From assembly GCA_034027115.1 (NCBI GenBank), contig GCA_034027115.1_4703.1: DNA of 44,537 bases. The stretch is one strand, 5' to 3'. The notes under the pieces are model-generated. The model worked only from the letters and a program-made list of their open reading frames with translations, made no database searches and was not told the DNA's origin. Origin of the DNA: a phage. Below, piece after piece: positions 1,358 to 43,281 of this stretch; the stretch's first letter is position 1, and every line of letters begins with the position of its first letter. Made by a program: the position numbers and the translations under genes.

Positions 1358-3409
1358 ATGCTTCAAAGACTAGGGGCTTCCTTGGTGAAGTTCAAGAGTA
1401 AACTCGCTGGTGCCATCGAACGTATACTCTCAGACAAGTTAATGGACACTGTAAGCGTTAAAGATTTTGGCGCTAAAGGAGATGGTATCTCAGATGATAC
1501 TGCTGCTTTCAAAGCAGCAATAACTTGTGGCGCATCTCGTGTATTAGTACCTGCTGGTAGGTATGTGATTACTGACACCCTTTCTTTGCCATCTGGGGTC
1601 TGGTTATTGGGTGAGGGTGTTGACTATTGGGATACCTATCGTCCAGACGAGGGTAGGCTTATTAAGTCATGGAGTAAAGGAACGCACCTTGTGTTCACTG
1701 GCAGTGGGCCTAAAAACAAGCAATTTCTTAATATCTCTAATGAACGCCCAACAAAGACAATAAATAAAGTAACCTGCTCTTTTACCGACTTCACCAATAG
1801 TGATGCACAAGCAACAAAACCTGCTACACCACGTAGTATGAGTATTGCTGTATCAGTACAGGCAGGCAGTGGCTTACGCGATCTTCGTATTATGGTAAAC
1901 AATGAAGGTATCTCTGGTTACAATGACTTTGTTTCTACAAACAAGCTAGGTGACAACTGGGATATTGGGTTGCATGTATATGACAGCTCAGATGCTGTAA
2001 TTGATAATGTGCAAGTTGTTGGCTATTGGAGGGTTGCAGGTACACTCTTAACGGAGAACGACGGCTCCATCACAATGCGTGGTAATCCAGAGAAGACACT
2101 ATTTAATAAGTTCTACACTCAAGGTATCAGAGGTTTACTTATTAGGAATAGCCCACAAGTAGATGTAGTATCTCAAGAGTCAGCAACCAAGTTAACCATT
2201 AAAGCGAATGCTACGTCCCGTATATTAGCACAAAATGGTTTTCGAGTAGCAGGTAGTACTACGATACATAGATGGACTAGTGTTACAAGACAAGGAGACA
2301 CTTATGTATTAGATGGCATCACACCTGCGTTACCTTCTGCTTCTGACCTCGGGGTTGTTCATTTCCCATCTATGGGTAACAATTGGTCTGGTACAGTGTT
2401 CAACAATACTGTTGCTGTGTCCTTTGAGCACTCATCCGGTAGCACCTCAAGACAACTAGGACTTCCTGTATCTTTTGCTATGGAGATTGATGGCTTCCCT
2501 TGTCGTAACCTCAAGTTCATAAACTTCAAGGCACAGACTTCTTACGATGAAGGAAATACATTGTTTGGTGATATGCGCGATGCCAAGTTTGTGGCTAGTG
2601 AGTTCGAGAATGGTAGGTTGATTGCGTACGATTTGTCTCAGACCCAAGGGTACACTGGGAATATGCGGTCTGCTGTGTCTGACATGCAGTTTCATTCTAC
2701 TAATATTGAGGGCTTCACACCACGTGATTTCTTCTATGACCTAGGACACTTTCCTACTTCTTACACTGATGGTTCTTTTATCATGAAGCATTGGAGAGAA
2801 AAGGATTTACAGGTACAATGGTATAATGGTAAAGCATTCATCCGTCTACATGAAGATGATGGCCGTGTAACACTTACCAGTAAAGATGGTCTAGATTTGT
2901 ATAACTTTAGTTCTACAAAAGACGTGACGTTCAATGGTCGCAATTTTGTATTCAAAAACGATGTAAGTGAAGACGTATTGAAGTGGTTTGGCGGTTCAGG
3001 GGATATCTCTACGAAAGGCAACATCTCGCCTATGGTAGATGGGACTGCCTCTCTGGGTACAAATTTCTATCGCTGGGGCGCAGTGCATTCAGTAAATGGG
3101 ACGTTACAAACCTCTGACGGTAGGCTAAAGGAGATCCATGATATTAAACAAGAAGAACTTGATGCGGGGATTGCATTATCAGCAAGTCTAATCAAGTACC
3201 GTTGGTATGGAGAAGAAAAGTTCCACTTTGGTTGTATTGCCCAAGAGGTAATGTTAATCATGGAGAAACATAATCTAGACCCATTACAGTATGGAATGGT
3301 GCAGTATGATGAAGAGGCAGACATCTTTAGTGTAAACTATGCTGAATTGAACAGCTTCTGCATCGCAGCTCTGTCTAGGAGGTTGAATGCCATTAATCAA
3401 ATCAGTTAA
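1358..3409 (+). CDS. Tailspike protein (683 aa) with pectate-lyase-like right-handed beta-helix and C-terminal intramolecular chaperone domain; probable capsule/LPS depolymerase.
   Basis: SD AAAGGAGG 7 nt upstream of ATG. N-terminal VKDFGAKGDGISDDTAAFKAAI...VPAGRYVI motif typical of pectate-lyase-fold tailspikes. C-terminal TSDGRLKEIHDIK...FHFGCIAQEV chaperone motif. Confidence 0.85.
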   Translation: MLQRLGASLVKFKSKLAGAIERILSDKLMDTVSVKDFGAKGDGISDDTAAFKAAITCGASRVLVPAGRYVITDTLSLPSGVWLLGEGVDYWDTYRPDEGRLIKSWSKGTHLVFTGSGPKNKQFLNISNERPTKTINKVTCSFTDFTNSDAQATKPATPRSMSIAVSVQAGSGLRDLRIMVNNEGISGYNDFVSTNKLGDNWDIGLHVYDSSDAVIDNVQVVGYWRVAGTLLTENDGSITMRGNPEKTLFNKFYTQGIRGLLIRNSPQVDVVSQESATKLTIKANATSRILAQNGFRVAGSTTIHRWTSVTRQGDTYVLDGITPALPSASDLGVVHFPSMGNNWSGTVFNNTVAVSFEHSSGSTSRQLGLPVSFAMEIDGFPCRNLKFINFKAQTSYDEGNTLFGDMRDAKFVASEFENGRLIAYDLSQTQGYTGNMRSAVSDMQFHSTNIEGFTPRDFFYDLGHFPTSYTDGSFIMKHWREKDLQVQWYNGKAFIRLHEDDGRVTLTSKDGLDLYNFSSTKDVTFNGRNFVFKNDVSEDVLKWFGGSGDISTKGNISPMVDGTASLGTNFYRWGAVHSVNGTLQTSDGRLKEIHDIKQEELDAGIALSASLIKYRWYGEEKFHFGCIAQEVMLIMEKHNLDPLQYGMVQYDEEADIFSVNYAELNSFCIAALSRRLNAINQIS

Positions 3410-12190: not shown

Positions 12191-12203
12191 TGTATTTATC
12201 AGG

Positions 12204-12227
12204 GCTTGTCTCACATGTGAGACAGGC
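12204..12227. repeat. Copy 3 of the palindrome, extended form GCTTGTCTCACATGTGAGACAGGC, followed by CTCTTATT.
   Basis: Exact read; extended stem of about 11 bp with one G-U pair; U-rich 3' flank suggests terminator or processing hairpin. Confidence 0.85.
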
Positions 12228-35144: not shown

Positions 35145-35161
35145 TATCTAACTCAAGGCTT

Positions 35162-35177
35162 GTCTCACATGTGAGAC
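35162..35177. repeat. Copy 6 of palindrome GTCTCACATGTGAGAC (extended stem, U-rich tail).
   Basis: Exact read: ggcttGTCTCACATGTGAGACaggtctttatg. Confidence 0.9.
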
Positions 35178-35208
35178 AGGTCTTTATGATAGGCACTATG
35201 GAGGAATT

Positions 35209-38200: not shown

Positions 38201-38406
38201 TTCAGACTAAGGGTTTGATAGACCAAATACCACTAGTAGGTGTTGGTCAAGATGCATATCGTTTAGCAGATTCTATAACTAAATATGCAGAAGGTGATAC
38301 AGAAGGTGTAGATGTGGCACGTAGGGCTTTACGCTTAGTGCCTCTAACTAATGTAATAGGAATCCAGAACGCATTGCGTTATGGCTTAGATGAACTGGAG
38401 GATTGA
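35209..38406 (+). CDS. Large internal virion/ejection protein (1065 aa), T7 gp16-equivalent.
   Basis: GGAGGA SD; size; position between internal virion protein and tail adaptor. Confidence 0.85.
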   Translation: MEQDIKTNWAGYVQSTPEPFSIEAAPVSAPTIRQRNELQEQVLEAKADADILGAVGAAFQNEWLAFGGKRWYDRATADFTPQPDFEIQPEQREALRFKYGTDMMQTITEGVRSEGELNFRIQNADEDLERNKRIAQAGWVGSVATIGAAVLDPVGWVASIPTGGAAKVGLVGRAVRGAIAAGVSNAAIESVLVQGDMTRDLDDIMVALGSGMAMGGVIGAVARGRATKLSEQGDDRAASIVRSADAGDRYVRAVADDSIGAMRVKGEEVLTEGAFDISSKGEDLLKTLQREGNSIDMTPRRWAGTMSALGTVVHSSHDASVRGLGARLFESPQGLGMQKASASLMQNTNLNRLKSADMNRFNDGFDLWLKENNINPVAGHTNSHYVQQYNEKVWEAVRIGMDESTPKSIRMAAEGQQAMYREALALRKRSGEAGFENIKADSKYMPDIFDTMKARRQFDRIGKDIDKEDIIELFSRAYQNGARKIPKEVADEIARAQVNRVVDATLTGRMSFEKAMSGQTKAEYEAIMRKAGFSDEEIEKMVEALDNKETRDNISNRAKMSLGLDVTQEYNGIRMRDFMNTNVEELTDNYMKEAAGGAALARQGFSTYQAALNAIDLVERNARNAAKDSKASLALDEEIRQMREGLRLIMGKSIDVDPQALSTKILRRGRDITGVLRLGQMGFAQLGELANFMGEFGIAATTIALGKQFRFTSKALRSGDGFFRDKNLAEVERMVGYIGEDNWLTTKGARPDEFGDVTTVKGMMAHFDQSMNSIRRAQTNLSLFRMAQGSLERMTNRQIALSFIDHLEGKKIIPQKKLEELGLTQEFMTNLQKHYDANSKGSGLLGFDTMPYAMGETLANAIRRKSGLIIQRNFIGDEGIWMNKALGKTFAQLKSFSLVSGEKQFGRGIRHDKIGLAKKTAYGFALGSIVYAAKAYVNSIGREDQDEYLEEKLSPKGLAFGAMGMMSTTAVFSLGGDFLGGLGVLPSELVQSRYEAGFQTKGLIDQIPLVGVGQDAYRLADSITKYAEGDTEGVDVARRALRLVPLTNVIGIQNALRYGLDELED

Positions 38407-39368
38407 TGAGTTATACTTTCACAGAACATATAGCCAACGGTACGCAAGTAACCTATCCCTTTAGATTTGCTGGCAGGGATAAAGGCTATCTTCGTGCCTC
38501 AGATGTGATAGTGGAATCTCTTCAAGGTAACACTTGGATTGAGGTTACATCTGGCTGGCAACTAACTGGCACGCACCAGATTACTTTTGATGTAGCACCA
38601 GTTGCAGGTTTGAAGTTCCGTATTCGAAGGGAAGTACAAAAGGAGTATCCATACGCTGAGTTTGACCGTGGTGTTACCTTGGATATGAAGTCTTTAAATG
38701 GTTCTTTCATTCATATACTGGAGATTACACAGGAGTTACTTGACGGGTTTTATCCAGAAGGATACTTCATTAAACAGAATGTAAGCTGGGGCGGCAATAA
38801 GATTACTGATTTGGCTGATGGCACAAATCCTGGAGATGCAGTAAATAAAGGGCAGCTTGATGCCATCGACAAGAAGCATACAGATTGGAACGCCAAACAG
38901 GACATTGAGATTGCTGGCCTTAAGGCTGGTATGACTTCTGGTATTGCGCACAGAACTGTTCCTTGGTACACGATAGCCAAAGTTGGTGAGATTTCCGTAA
39001 AACCACCTTATGAATTTCAAGATGCACTAGTTTTCCTTAATGGGGTGTTGCAGCACCAAATTGTAGGCGCATACTCTATAAGCAACAACACTATCACTTT
39101 CGCAGAGCCGCTTGTGGCGGGTACAGAGGTGTATGTGCTGATTGGTAGTCGTGTGGCTACATCTGAACCTAATATTCAGTTAGAGTTGAACTTTGACTTA
39201 GTAGAAGGCCAACAAGTAGTACAGATTGGCTCTGCATTTAAGTACATTGAGGTCTACCTTGATGGATTATTACAACCTAAACTTGCTTATCAGGTAGACG
39301 GTGACATTGTTACTTTCTCAGAAAGAGTACCAGAATGCCGGATGACTGCTAAGATTATCACAGCATAA
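38406..39368 (+). CDS. Tail fibre N-terminal-domain homologue acting as tailspike adaptor.
   Basis: GGAGG SD; ATG overlaps upstream stop (TGATG); about 320 aa, the size of a gp17 N-terminal domain without a receptor-binding part, as in SP6-like phages where separate tailspikes dock on an adaptor. Confidence 0.8.
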   Translation: MSYTFTEHIANGTQVTYPFRFAGRDKGYLRASDVIVESLQGNTWIEVTSGWQLTGTHQITFDVAPVAGLKFRIRREVQKEYPYAEFDRGVTLDMKSLNGSFIHILEITQELLDGFYPEGYFIKQNVSWGGNKITDLADGTNPGDAVNKGQLDAIDKKHTDWNAKQDIEIAGLKAGMTSGIAHRTVPWYTIAKVGEISVKPPYEFQDALVFLNGVLQHQIVGAYSISNNTITFAEPLVAGTEVYVLIGSRVATSEPNIQLELNFDLVEGQQVVQIGSAFKYIEVYLDGLLQPKLAYQVDGDIVTFSERVPECRMTAKIITA

Positions 39369-39377
39369 GGAGGTGGG

Positions 39378-39572
39378 ATGATTAACTCCGAACTGGTAGA
39401 TAGTGGTGTGAAGCTTGCGCCACCTGCACTCGTATCAGGTGGGTACTTCCTCGGTATCAGTTGGGATAATTGGGTGTTAATAGCAACATTCATTTATACC
39501 GTGTTGCAAATTGGGGACTGGTTTTATAATAAGTTCAAGATTTGGAGGGAGAAGCGTGAGCGTACACAATAA
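39378..39572 (+). CDS. Holin (T7 gp17.5-like, class II).
   Basis: AAGGAGG SD; WVLIATFIYTVLQIGDWF resembles the T7 holin core (WFYVAAIAYTVVQIG); basic C-terminus. Confidence 0.75.
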   Translation: MINSELVDSGVKLAPPALVSGGYFLGISWDNWVLIATFIYTVLQIGDWFYNKFKIWREKRERTQ

Positions 39573-39855
39573 ACATGCAGCTACAGAGGACGAGGTTGGC
39601 ATTCTGCATGGTGCTATTACCAAAATCTTCAATAAGAAAGCACAGGCAATACTGGACACTATAGAAGAAGACCCTGATGCAGCATTACATTTAGTGTCTG
39701 GTAAGGATATTGGTGCGATGTGTAAGTGGGTTCTTGATAACGGCATTACCGCCACACCTGCTGCACAGCAGGAAGAGTCCAAGTTATCTAAGCGCCTCAA
39801 GGCTATCCGAGAGGCATCCAGTGGTAAGATTATTCAGTTTACAAAAGAGGAGTGA
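39556..39855 (+). CDS. Putative terminase small subunit (positional call; GTG start after GGAGGG).
   Basis: About 99-aa ORF between holin and large terminase as in T7 gene 18; no motif I can verify. A promoter-like AATACTGGACACTATAGAAGAAG lies inside at 39646..39668. Confidence 0.45.
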   Translation: MSVHNKHAATEDEVGILHGAITKIFNKKAQAILDTIEEDPDAALHLVSGKDIGAMCKWVLDNGITATPAAQQEESKLSKRLKAIREASSGKIIQFTKEE

Positions 39856-39856
39856 T

Positions 39857-40300
39857 ATGCATAGATGGTGTGAATCTCAAGGTTATACCATCTTACCTTC
39901 TGGTGTCATCCTTTCAAAGGGTGGCACCCCTCTCAAACCATTCAAGGCGGGTAGGGGTTATTTAGCAGTTAAAATTAAAAATAAAGAAGGTAAATGGCGT
40001 AATGTCTATGTTCATCAATTAGTGGCTTATAAGTATTTACCTAAAACTAATAATGAAGTAAACCACAAAGACGGCGATAAGCACAACAATGATGTTAGCA
40101 ACTTGGAGTGGGTAACAAGAAGCGAGAATAACTATTTAAAATGCAATGGAAATGATAGGAGTGCCTTAAATAGCTATTTAGCAAGATTAAAAGATTGCTT
40201 CTTGCAAGGTAAGGGTGTAGCAGAAACCGCTAGACTTACTGGTAAAAGTGAACCAAGAGTTTCTTCTCTCTTTAAGGAGTGGCGAAATGGCAAAGGCTAG
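39857..40300 (+). CDS. HNH endonuclease inserted between the terminase subunit genes.
   Basis: AGGAG SD; NHKDGDKHNNDVSNLEWVTRSEN HNH signature; overlaps the large terminase start. Confidence 0.8.
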   Translation: MHRWCESQGYTILPSGVILSKGGTPLKPFKAGRGYLAVKIKNKEGKWRNVYVHQLVAYKYLPKTNNEVNHKDGDKHNNDVSNLEWVTRSENNYLKCNGNDRSALNSYLARLKDCFLQGKGVAETARLTGKSEPRVSSLFKEWRNGKG

Positions 40301-42185
40301 AGAATCACAGGCAGAGGCATTAAAGCGGTGGGAAAACCTTAAAGAACTACAAGACACTTTTAAATATACAGCGGAAGGTTTGCTTCTCTTTGCAGATACA
40401 GTTATCCATAACTTGATTGCAGGCAACCCTCATCTGATTCGTATGCAGGCTGATATCTTGAAGTTCCTATTCTACGGACATAAGTATCGCCTCATCGAAG
40501 CGCCTCGTGGTATCGCTAAGACAACACTATCAGCAATCTATACGGTATTTCGTATTATCCACGAACCTCATAAGCGTATCATGGTTGTATCCCAAAACGC
40601 TAAGCGAGCAGAGGAAATCGCAGGTTGGGTAGTTAAAATCTTCCGTGGCCTAGACTTCCTTGAGTTTATGCTGCCGGATATCTACGCAGGGGACCGTGCA
40701 TCCGTTAAGGCGTTCGAGATTCATTACACCCTACGTGGTAGTGATAAGTCTCCTTCTGTATCCTGTTACTCAATCGAAGCAGGTATGCAAGGTGCTCGTG
40801 CGGATATTATCCTAGCGGATGACGTAGAGTCGATGCAGAATGCTCGTACGGCAGCGGGCCGTGCCTTGCTTGAGGAACTGACTAAGGAGTTTGAATCTAT
40901 CAACCAGTTTGGGGATATCATTTACCTTGGTACGCCTCAGAACGTAAACTCTATCTACAACAACCTACCTGCTCGTGGTTACTCTGTTCGTATCTGGACT
41001 GCGCGTTACCCTTCAGTAGAGCAAGAGCAATGTTATGGCGACTTCCTTGCACCTATGATTGTTCAAGATATGAAGGACAACCCAGCACTTCGCTCAGGGT
41101 ACGGGTTGGATGGTAATAGTGGTGCACCTTGTGCCCCTGAAATGTATGATGATGAAGTCCTGATTGAGAAGGAAATCTCTCAGGGTGCTGCTAAGTTCCA
41201 GCTTCAGTTCATGCTTAACACTCGCATGATGGATGCTGACAGATACCCATTACGCCTGAACAATCTAATCTTCACCTCGTTTGGTACAGAGGAAGTCCCT
41301 GTGATGCCTACGTGGAGTAATGATTCCATAAACATCATTGGTGATGCACCTAAGTATGGTAACAAGCCTACGGATTTCACGTACAGACCTGTAGCTCGCC
41401 CATACGAATGGGGTGCTGTCTCCCGCAAGATTATGTATATTGACCCTGCGGGTGGTGGTAAGAACGGAGACGAGACGGGTGTAGCCATCGTATTCCTGCA
41501 CGGCACATTCATTTATGTGTATCAGTGCTTTGGTGTACCTGGCGGATACCGAGAGTCGTCCCTGAATCGCATTGTGCAGGCCGCAAAGCAGGCGGGTGTT
41601 AAAGAGGTATTCATTGAGAAGAACTTTGGTCATGGCGCGTTTGAGGCGGTAATTAAGCCGTACTTTGAACGAGAGTGGCCTGTAACTCTGGAAGAGGATT
41701 ACGCCACCGGACAGAAAGAGTTGCGTATCATTGAGACGCTGGAGCCGCTCATGGCAGCACATAGGCTTATCTTCAATGCAGAGATGGTGAAGTCAGACTT
41801 TGAGTCGGTACAGCACTATCCGCTTGAACTACGCATGTCCTACAGTCTTTTCAATCAAATGTCGAACATAACGATTGAGAAGAACAGCCTCCGGCACGAT
41901 GACCGCCTAGACGCCCTGTATGGCGCTATACGGCAATTAACTTCTCAGATAGACTATGACGAGGTTACACGGATTAATCGCCTCAGAGCGCAGGAGATGC
42001 GCGATTACATCCATGCTATGAATACACCTCATCTACGCAGGGCAATGCTATATGGAGATTACGGTACTGAGCGAAGAGTGACCAACACTTCCGTAGCGAT
42101 GCAGCAGCGAGTTTACGGGCAGAACTACCGAAATAAATCGGCAAGCAGAAATACACTTTCTGCAAGGATTTCAAGGACTTATTAA
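40287..42185 (+). CDS. Terminase large subunit (T7 gp19-like).
   Basis: Walker A-like PRGIAKTT, ADDVES, YLGTPQ, KFQLQFMLN, IETLEPLMAAHRLIF and HDDRLDAL motifs match the gp19 family; AAGGAG SD before ATG 40287. Confidence 0.95.
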   Translation: MAKARESQAEALKRWENLKELQDTFKYTAEGLLLFADTVIHNLIAGNPHLIRMQADILKFLFYGHKYRLIEAPRGIAKTTLSAIYTVFRIIHEPHKRIMVVSQNAKRAEEIAGWVVKIFRGLDFLEFMLPDIYAGDRASVKAFEIHYTLRGSDKSPSVSCYSIEAGMQGARADIILADDVESMQNARTAAGRALLEELTKEFESINQFGDIIYLGTPQNVNSIYNNLPARGYSVRIWTARYPSVEQEQCYGDFLAPMIVQDMKDNPALRSGYGLDGNSGAPCAPEMYDDEVLIEKEISQGAAKFQLQFMLNTRMMDADRYPLRLNNLIFTSFGTEEVPVMPTWSNDSINIIGDAPKYGNKPTDFTYRPVARPYEWGAVSRKIMYIDPAGGGKNGDETGVAIVFLHGTFIYVYQCFGVPGGYRESSLNRIVQAAKQAGVKEVFIEKNFGHGAFEAVIKPYFEREWPVTLEEDYATGQKELRIIETLEPLMAAHRLIFNAEMVKSDFESVQHYPLELRMSYSLFNQMSNITIEKNSLRHDDRLDALYGAIRQLTSQIDYDEVTRINRLRAQEMRDYIHAMNTPHLRRAMLYGDYGTERRVTNTSVAMQQRVYGQNYRNKSASRNTLSARISRTY

Positions 42186-42205
42186 TTACTGGACACTATA
42201 GAAGG
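42184..42205 (+). promoter_or_regulatory. Phage promoter immediately after the terminase gene (AATTACTGGACACTATAGAAGG).
   Basis: Near-exact consensus; positionally like T7 phiOR. Confidence 0.7.
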
Positions 42206-42346
42206 AAGGCCCAGATAATAAGAGAAAATAATAGGTAATATATAGTTTAACCTAGGTTATATAGGTATGCCTTAGTATGGGTGTACTCCTGTACACCCTA
42301 TTCCTTACTACCTTACTATATTTACATAATAGGAGAGAGAGAGACA

Positions 42347-42625
42347 ATGGCTAAGGATTATAGTAGTCAACCATTAACAGGTAAGTCTAAGAGAGAGCAG
42401 GTACAACCTGTAAGTGAAGAACTAATGCTTCCGGTAATCAAAAAAGAGGAAGCTAGTAAGAAAAGCAATGCTATTAATGATGCCACCAAATCAGGTAAAC
42501 AGAAAGGTGCAATGGTGTGCCTTGAAGGGAAAGATGGTATATTGAAGATTGCTATCGCGGTTGATGGCAAAGAAGATTCAGAGTGGAAGTTAGTAACAGT
42601 GGTATCAACTGTTAAACCATTTTAA
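42347..42625 (+). CDS. Small protein, paralogue A (about 92 aa) with SGKQKGAMV-LEG motif.
   Basis: AGGAGAGAGAGAGA leader then ATG; shares a near-identical 27-nt segment (tcaggtaaacagaaaggtgcaatggt) with the next gene. Confidence 0.6.
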   Translation: MAKDYSSQPLTGKSKREQVQPVSEELMLPVIKKEEASKKSNAINDATKSGKQKGAMVCLEGKDGILKIAIAVDGKEDSEWKLVTVVSTVKPF

Positions 42626-42643
42626 GATAAGGAGGAAGATTAC

Positions 42644-42934
42644 ATGGCTGAATATGGTACTGCAGGTTCTGTTACTGGTCAGGTTTTTCGAGTAAAAGCA
42701 GTACAAACTATTGCAACGGCAATCCCGATGCCTGTTGTTAAAGCAGCAGACCTTAATAAAAAAGATCACCCTATCAACATCAAACATTTATCAGGTAAAC
42801 AGAAAGGTGCAATGGTTGCTCTTGAGACAGATGCCGAAACCTTATGTATTGCTGTTGCACGTGGTAGTGAACCAACAGACCCTTGGGATGTAACTGGCAT
42901 GGAATCGACCGCTGTCATTCCAACAGGTGGATAA
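42644..42934 (+). CDS. Small protein, paralogue B (96 aa) with SGKQKGAMV-LET motif.
   Basis: TAAGGAGG SD; same conserved segment as paralogue A. Confidence 0.6.
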   Translation: MAEYGTAGSVTGQVFRVKAVQTIATAIPMPVVKAADLNKKDHPINIKHLSGKQKGAMVALETDAETLCIAVARGSEPTDPWDVTGMESTAVIPTGG

Positions 42935-42936
42935 TA

Positions 42937-43281
42937 ATGCTTAACAAATACTTCAAGCGCCGTGAGTTCGCTTGCCGTTGTGGGTGCGGTACATCCACTG
43001 TTGATGCTGAATTACTACAAGTAGTCACAGATGTGCGTGAGCACTTTGGTTCTCCTGTAGTTATCACTTCGGGGCACCGCTGTGCTAAGCACAATGCTAA
43101 TGTAGGAGGGGCTAAGAACTCCATGCATCTTACTGGTAAGGCTGCTGACATTAAGGTACGAGGCATCTTACCTTCTGATGTACATAAGTATCTTACTGAT
43201 AAGTACCAAGGCAAGTATGGTATTGGTAAGTATACCTCCTTTACTCATATTGATGTACGTAACGGGTGTGCACGATGGTAG
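42937..43281 (+). CDS. Endolysin, peptidase M15-type zinc peptidase.
   Basis: SGHRCAKHNANVGGAKNSMHLTGKAADIKV matches the M15 signature (His/Asp zinc ligands); start taken at ATG 42937 (ORF track frame begins 42883). Confidence 0.85.
   Translation: MLNKYFKRREFACRCGCGTSTVDAELLQVVTDVREHFGSPVVITSGHRCAKHNANVGGAKNSMHLTGKAADIKVRGILPSDVHKYLTDKYQGKYGIGKYTSFTHIDVRNGCARW

Follow-up and report, generated by a model that had tools for sequence, protein, structure and literature searches.

Genes 41 and 42 of the K1-5-like phage genome analysed here encode two small paralogous late proteins, which we tentatively interpret as a trimeric or pseudo-trimeric candidate accessory or anchor module of the virion surface. 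This reading is carried by two features of homologous proteins. Elsewhere the same domain is joined to modules of Ig-like, tail-fibre, collagen-like or esterase type, which hints at the virion surface, and the recurrent count of three domains per chain points to a threefold or pseudo-threefold unit. The fusions occur in paralogues and distant relatives, not in gp41 and gp42 themselves, and a trimer would be suggested here by the domain counts alone.

The window, i.e. the whole 44,537-nt stretch of DNA that was analysed, is on sequence grounds a circularly permuted Vectrevirus genome (K1-5-like, SP6 supergroup). Tailspike genes, which form the right genome end of K1-5, are located at the window start (113-1273 and 1358-3409), so the record is permuted and the physical ends are internal. 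The 755 bases around the gene pair match 80 phage records, with 94.8% identity to Vectrevirus LI10P3 and 93.3% to K1-5, and the 83 gp41 homologues mostly lie on contigs of ~44 kb, the size of a phage genome. The pair and its neighbours are arranged as follows:

40287-42185, plus strand: large terminase subunit gene (terL), an ORF aligned codon for codon with K1-5 gene 40
42347-42625, plus strand: paralogue A, the K1-5 gp41 orthologue, 92 aa (MAKDYSS...), pI 9.0
42644-42934, plus strand: paralogue B, the K1-5 gp42 orthologue, 96 aa (MAEYGTA...), pI 6.0
42937-43281, plus strand: Peptidase_M15_3 endolysin (Pfam E 1.1e-32), the downstream neighbour, whose ATG follows the gene 42 stop codon after 2 nt

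K1-5-, K1E- and SP6-type phages serve as models and as therapeutic agents against encapsulated E. coli, Salmonella, Klebsiella and Proteus, and all of them conserve this gene pair, which is uncharacterised and carries a false enzyme name in RefSeq. The orthologues (gp41/gp42 in K1-5 and K1E, gp42/gp43 in SP6) are uncharacterised ORFs in the same position, and we found no published function for them in the literature searched. In K1-5 the region is 93% identical in DNA to the window; in SP6 both lineages are present at ~48% protein identity. Compared with these three phages, the window copies carry many private amino-acid changes and a private 27-nt identity between the two genes. Thus, what was already known are the ORFs themselves, as K1-5 genes 41 and 42 with uncharacterised function. 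In the searched papers and databases we did not find descriptions of the family architecture (bare, triplicated, or as the N-terminal base for adhesin-type domains), of the lack of a solved fold relative or of the strong excess of amino-acid changes.

Paralogy, the 27-nt repeat and the age of the duplication

The initial annotation, made from the sequence alone, had described two tandem paralogous genes between terminase and endolysin that share a short DNA segment. All three parts of this description were confirmed. The two ORFs are true paralogues (BLASTP, 36% identity over 89 residues, E 5e-14), related along their length with 18 invariant columns across both lineages, and the ORF coordinates and the Pfam match of the endolysin agree on their position. 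A six-frame profile search detected these two copies of the domain and no other in the window. The shared segments of the two proteins read KSGKQKGAMVCLE and LSGKQKGAMVALE. At the DNA level, re-inspection revealed a direct repeat (42490-42525 and 42790-42825, spacing 300) with 89% identity over 36 nt, of which the first 27 nt (ATCAGGTAAACAGAAAGGTGCAATGGT) are exact:

42490-42516, plus strand: exact 27-nt core in gene 41, encoding (K)SGKQKGAMV
42790-42816, plus strand: exact 27-nt core in gene 42, encoding (L)SGKQKGAMV

No other exact direct repeat in the 44.5-kb window is as long as this core; the remaining ones are 20-24-nt phage promoters and one hairpin. Given the identical peptide, eight identical codons have a probability of 0.0013 (independent draws, phage codon usage), meaning that the DNA identity exceeds what the shared peptide explains. 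SGKQKGAM is invariant across both paralogue lineages, while its codons vary among relatives (TCA/TCT/TCC/TCG, GGT/GGC, AAA/AAG, CAG/CAA, GGT/GGG/GGA/GGC and GCA/GCC/GCT/GCG). It is therefore the peptide alone that is conserved, and a functional DNA element within the 27-mer was rejected since every synonymous site varies among relatives.

In 16 relatives, gp41 uses GGG or GGA followed by GCC, whereas gp41 of the window has GGT GCA, identical to its own gp42 and unique among the 17 gp41 genes compared. As a consequence, the relatives share only 18 exact nt, and the 27-nt identity is private to the window phage. The view that the identity is a relic of the duplication therefore had to be abandoned. 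It probably reflects a micro gene conversion with a tract of at most 27 nt, as suggested by two adjacent synonymous changes that both go towards the state of the paralogue. General concerted evolution of the paralogues was rejected, because the cores of UAB_Phi78 differ at six synonymous sites; in the K1-5-like relatives examined, the two cores differ at two or three.

A recent local duplication, as initially proposed, is likewise contradicted by the distribution of the two lineages. Both are orthologously conserved in SP6, BP12B and further Proteus, Klebsiella, Citrobacter and Salmonella phages, so the split predates these phage genera and the duplication is ancient. Across related phages, the locus is an array whose size varies between one and four neighbouring genes. 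K1-5 and the window phage carry just two bare copies. CrRp3 has three genes, the third directly after gene 42, and this third paralogue is also present in L010, L017, L019 and L020, with metagenomic Vectrevirus-like contigs among the carriers. In CrRp3 and several of the metagenomic Vectrevirus-like contigs, it consists of the same domain followed by a ~150-aa beta-rich extension, and its place is occupied by the endolysin in the window. SP6 (L022, 3298-3733) has two genes and a decayed third paralogue, in which an 81-aa ORF of the N-terminal domain is followed in another frame by a 77-aa ORF matching the C-terminal end of the intact 232-aa CrRp3 protein (E 7e-7). Klebsiella phage S16c has four copies, and one bare plus one extended copy were found in each of Era103, Vibrio BD1, Marinomonas CPP1m and Aeromonas HJG. 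In Proteus phage Premi, genes 045 and 046 (93 and 94 aa) occupy the corresponding positions directly after terL; the virion proteome of this phage is the only relevant one found (Sci Rep 2025, PMC12615708). In ECBP5 (L032, 2347-2958), a 203-aa protein with a match to the PHROG 'tail needle knob' (E 4e-76) is encoded between the terminase and the family member, representing another gene of the trimeric-appendage type in the same array.

Late expression and fast evolution of the pair

The region upstream of gene 41 contains the following elements:

42183-42207, plus strand: SP6/K1-5-type phage RNA polymerase promoter, core GACACTATAGAAG at 42192-42204
42249-42258, plus strand: palindrome AACCTAGGTT in the gene 41 5' UTR, with TATAGGT repeats on either side (region 42240-42270)
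42279-42298, plus strand: GC-rich hairpin GGGTGTAC-TCCT-GTACACCC in the 5' UTR, from a terminator-like scan and RNA folding
42331-42343, plus strand: gene 41 Shine-Dalgarno region AGGAGAGAGAGAG (AGGAG), with a 4-nt (GA)n expansion versus relatives

Gene 42 has its own ribosome-binding site:

42628-42635, plus strand: strong gene 42 Shine-Dalgarno sequence TAAGGAGG (AAGGAGG), read from the sequence

The promoter drives genes 41 and 42 as well as the lysis genes. Its 13-mer GACACTATAGAAG has eight exact copies, all on the plus strand, and 15 matches at up to two mismatches compared to 1.2 expected; upstream of gene 41 it is conserved in K1-5, CrRp3, UAB_Phi78 and SP6. Together with the strong Shine-Dalgarno sequences, the phage promoter marks genes 41 and 42 as late, probably well-expressed and co-transcribed with the lysis cassette. 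The leader following the promoter spans ~145 nt and contains the conserved palindrome, which is invariant in seven phages including SP6, and the GC hairpin, which is conserved in Vectrevirus and missing in SP6. The latter is a putative weak terminator-like element, or a processing or stabilising element. Folding of the whole 5' UTR was no better than that of shuffled sequence (z 0.37). The ribosome-binding region of gene 41 (42331-42346) reads AGGAGAGAGAGAGACAATG here and AGGAGAGAGACAATG in close relatives; the (GA)n expansion places the start codon at a greater distance, which could affect the expression of gp41.

The pair had been regarded as rapidly evolving, and this proved correct. Using terL as the control gene for the rate comparison (pN/pS 0.08), we obtained the following values for the window versus K1-5:

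gp41: 12 nonsynonymous and 3 synonymous changes, omega 1.07
gp42: 22 nonsynonymous and 5 synonymous changes, omega 1.41
terL: 12 nonsynonymous and 43 synonymous changes, omega 0.08
endolysin: 9.5 nonsynonymous and 24.5 synonymous changes, omega 0.09

Both genes differ significantly from terL (Fisher P 6e-5 for gp41 and 6e-7 for gp42). Compared with LI10P3 and T145P2, gp42 shows 19 nonsynonymous and no synonymous changes, which has a probability of 0.005 even under neutrality. For low-divergence pairs without the window, pN/pS is 0.56-0.76 versus 0.08-0.10 for the controls, and gene-wide values are 0.4-0.8 versus 0.08-0.23 for terL and endolysin, figures that short-patch recombination might inflate. 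Genes 41 and 42 are thus the fastest-evolving coding sequences of the region, at ~10 times the pN/pS of their neighbours; family-wide dN/dS is 0.2-0.3. The changes are concentrated in three places, namely residues ~32-39, the hairpin ~59-68 after the SGKQKGAMV strand and the C-terminal tail. In these variable segments pN/pS is ~1 or higher, and the core is frozen. Fast evolution and the adhesin-, fibre- or esterase-bearing relatives likely mark an interface with the host surface or with host immunity.

A domain family without a solved relative

A profile and structure search had been proposed for both proteins. The profile part placed both in one family, with matches to phrog_2725 that cover the whole proteins (gp41 E 1.3e-35, gp42 E 4.4e-43); the structural part yielded no solved fold relative. 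The profile bears the label 'acetyl-CoA acetyltransferase', which is repeated in RefSeq for K1-5, AAPEc6, VEc3, LL11, UAB_Phi78, ECBP5, phi-A318 and others. Thiolases comprise ~390 aa with N- and C-terminal domains and a catalytic Cys/His. A thiolase function was rejected for these proteins of 92-96 aa, which have no Pfam match at E values up to 1 and nothing above noise in NCBIfam, and we consider the name false and unsupported by the sequence. Its earliest use that we found is a 'putative' entry in the annotation table of UAB_Phi78 (PMC4837284). One GenBank record names a family member 'Sema domain-containing protein'; the underlying Sema/plexin similarity (PDB match, E 0.003 over 45 residues) was treated as chance. 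Family and domain searches indicated no enzyme or membrane role, and the proteins are not acidic. The small terminase (39484-39852) carries the peptide SGKDIGAM, resembling SGKQKGAM, but a family relationship was dismissed since the profile match is not significant (E 0.26) and is regarded as chance.

The domain comprises ~85 residues of alpha/beta structure, in which a compact core is preceded by an N-terminal arm with little order. The arm is conserved (TG-x3-4-R/K, then PVV), and N45, S50, K52 and W81 are invariant in the core in an alignment of 81 domains. The AlphaFold2 model of gp42 built from this alignment has a mean pLDDT of 86, with the core above 95 and arm residues 1-20 poorly ordered. 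It replaced a first model of the family from a shallow alignment, which was too poor (pLDDT 66); a further homologue search based on the deep alignment brought hardly anything new. The model predicts strands at 31-33, 57-61, 67-72 and 81-84 and short helices at 34-37 and 47-50. Searching it against the PDB gave no significant fold match, including to decoration or anchor domains, and sequence or profile searches identified no PDB relatives of gp41 or gp42. PDB sequence searches with three extension-bearing paralogues also returned no matches.

An exhaustive profile search recovered 198 representative homologues, and among the 150 listed, at least 19 proteins have exactly three tandem domains and at least 22 have two. 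The three-domain chains of 260-300 aa align position by position, and each copy keeps the N, SGK, W and terminal TP motifs. Where they could be placed (L038, L039 and L040), the three-domain genes directly follow the large terminase gene, i.e. they occupy the slot of genes 41 and 42; in L040 the small terminase is visible, too. Scans of viral and metagenome contigs for the context of three-domain genes retrieved no relatives. The fused domains d1-d3 show no one-to-one correspondence to paralogues A, B and C, and a defined heterotrimer is therefore not demonstrated.

In fusions, the family domain is always N-terminal. A 178-aa paralogue of Klebsiella phage S16c has Pfam Ig_2/Ig_3 after the domain and matches the PHROGs 'Hoc-like head decoration' and 'major tail protein'. 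The 251-aa protein of Aeromonas HJG continues with tail-fibre-like repeats of the VNGV type (read by eye) and gp48 of Era103 with a probable coiled coil (judged from its sequence). In L038, the gene downstream of the three-domain gene encodes the same N-terminal domain followed by collagen-like and tail-fibre PHROGs. A BFVD search further located the domain in a 558-aa SGNH esterase of Pseudomonas phage BUCT553 and in a Marinomonas CPP1m protein annotated as 'tail fiber protein'. Ig-like, tail-fibre, collagen-like and esterase modules are typically displayed on virions.

Candidate functions and known systems

According to the favoured, still tentative reading, the domain would form the base of an accessory structure with threefold or pseudo-threefold symmetry on the virion surface of SP6-like and allied T7-supergroup phages. 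Three domains would assemble as one unit, here as homo- or hetero-trimers of gp41 and gp42, and the arm and the SGK face would serve as assembly and docking surfaces on the particle, with the capsid threefold position or the gp37 tail adaptor as candidate docking sites. In phages with bare copies only, the unit might act as a cap or cement with its variable loops facing outward, and the extra paralogues of relatives would bring adhesin, fibre or enzyme domains. To our knowledge, the published low-resolution reconstructions of K1E, K1-5 and SP6 report no capsid decorations. If the proteins are virion components, they would add a new fold to the accessory proteins of phage particles and provide a natural scaffold for display or anchoring that comes bare, as a threefold fusion or cargo-bearing, and they would be a candidate determinant of adsorption or stability for the engineering of such phages.

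Systems of bare cement and adhesin-bearing decoration are known from lambda gpD trimers, T4 Soc/Hoc and the head fibres of phi29 (gp8.5). The resemblance lies in small late proteins, a threefold unit (here inferred), a disordered N-terminal arm and, in related copies of the gp41/gp42 family, optional Ig-like or fibre extensions. In contrast to these systems, genes 41 and 42 follow the terminase gene instead of lying beside the capsid gene. With known capsid decoration proteins (gpD/SHP, Soc, Hoc, Dec, pb10, beta-tulip), neither sequence nor fold similarity was detected, and an Ig-like (Hoc-like) domain is absent from gp41 and gp42, occurring only in the S16c paralogue. The N-terminal domain of T7 gp17 and the spike anchor peptides of the K1-5/KP32 type are N-terminal virion anchors as well; unlike these, the family domain stands alone here and is triplicated in one chain elsewhere. 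Pfam Phage_T7_tail is absent from gp41 and gp42 and was found in the adaptor (38403-39368). The initial comparison with the small proteins encoded in this region of T7 holds for the post-terminase location and is otherwise loose, because T7 has no homologue. Among T7-like phages, P2_50 of Vibrio phage Peru-2 is a small (~12 kDa), virion-abundant protein that decorates capsid vertices as pentamers with a seven-strand Ig-like fold (PMC13320782). Compared by description, the gp42 model differs from it, with four strands and short helices instead of seven strands. [quoted passage not shown] Being alpha-helical and of unrelated fold, they were rejected as homologues. Both cases demonstrate that decoration of T7-like capsids by small late proteins is possible; neither is demonstrably related to the pair.

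The initial annotation had called the pattern typical of host-interaction or anti-defence genes; for the anti-defence reading we found no positive evidence. That the pair encodes intracellular counter-defence or host-takeover proteins would fit their small size, the lack of an enzyme fold, a frozen motif beside fast-evolving residues and a copy number that differs between phages. A doubtful version of this reading sees a (pseudo)trimeric sponge that captures an immune signal carrying phosphate in its invariant SGKxxG loop: the motif could bind phosphate, and the three-domain fusions would suit a threefold ligand pocket. However, the genes are expressed late together with the endolysin and not early, and Ig-like, tail-fibre, collagen-like or esterase modules would be hard to explain as fusion partners of an intracellular protein. 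Structures of sponges and other anti-defence proteins exist in the PDB, and the absence of a fold match to a solved PDB chain, as a partial test, also counts against this role, as do the isoelectric points, which are not those of acidic DNA mimics, and the lack of matches to NCBIfam and to PADLOC models at E values up to 0.1. We therefore consider intracellular counter-defence unlikely. Rather improbable, in our view, is an undescribed fold family acting either as a threefold host-range or adsorption determinant on the virion surface or as a threefold sponge against host immune signals. The host-range version could, for example, be the missing recogniser of a secondary, post-capsule receptor in K1-5- and SP6-type phages, and either version, if true, would account for a frozen SGK core that coexists with loops under positive selection.

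Roles in spike assembly, lysis or packaging are less likely than the anti-defence reading. Tailspike assembly or attachment factors, bridging the gp37 adaptor and the spike or acting as chaperones that are absent or substoichiometric in the particle, appear quite improbable, given that UAB_Phi78 combines K1E-type genes 41 and 42 with an SP6-type adaptor and spikes (98% identical to those of SP6) and that no resemblance was found between the pair and the N-termini of the spikes or the adaptor encoded in the window. Chaperones of phage fibres, moreover, usually have their gene behind that of the fibre and lack fusions to receptor-type domains, a background argument against this role. The 2-nt distance between gene 42 and the endolysin ATG and the common promoter speak for a lysis accessory role, in which the proteins would regulate or support the M15 endolysin, translationally coupled to gene 42. 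Yet BD1 and CPP1m have no lysis gene within ~3 kb downstream of the array, phi-A318 has a 558-aa tailspike-like gene between the family gene and the endolysin, and one or two further paralogues precede the endolysin-sized gene in CrRp3 and S16c. With no membrane segment noted and with fibre-like fusion partners, the probability of a lysis role is very small. The same low rank is given to head-completion or packaging proteins acting with the terminase. Their position directly after terL in all loci examined, those of the metagenomic three-domain versions among them, would support such a function, but terL and gene 41 are set apart by a separate promoter and a hairpin, the very fast surface evolution is unlike that of packaging components (as seen for terL), and the fusions to adhesin-type domains argue against it, making this role highly improbable.

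Two further observations concern the genome outside the pair. An ORF of 148 aa with a match to HNH_3 endonucleases (39854-40300, Pfam E 2.6e-11) is inserted between the small (39556-39855) and the large terminase genes and overlaps both at its ends, whereas the terminase genes of K1-5 abut without an HNH_3 gene between them; it is probably a mobile homing endonuclease. Furthermore, a 24-nt palindromic hairpin (GGCTTGTCTCACATGTGAGACAGG) is present in two exact copies (12203-12226 and 35157-35180), both intergenic and just upstream of genes, which could represent RNase III-type processing sites or terminator-like elements.
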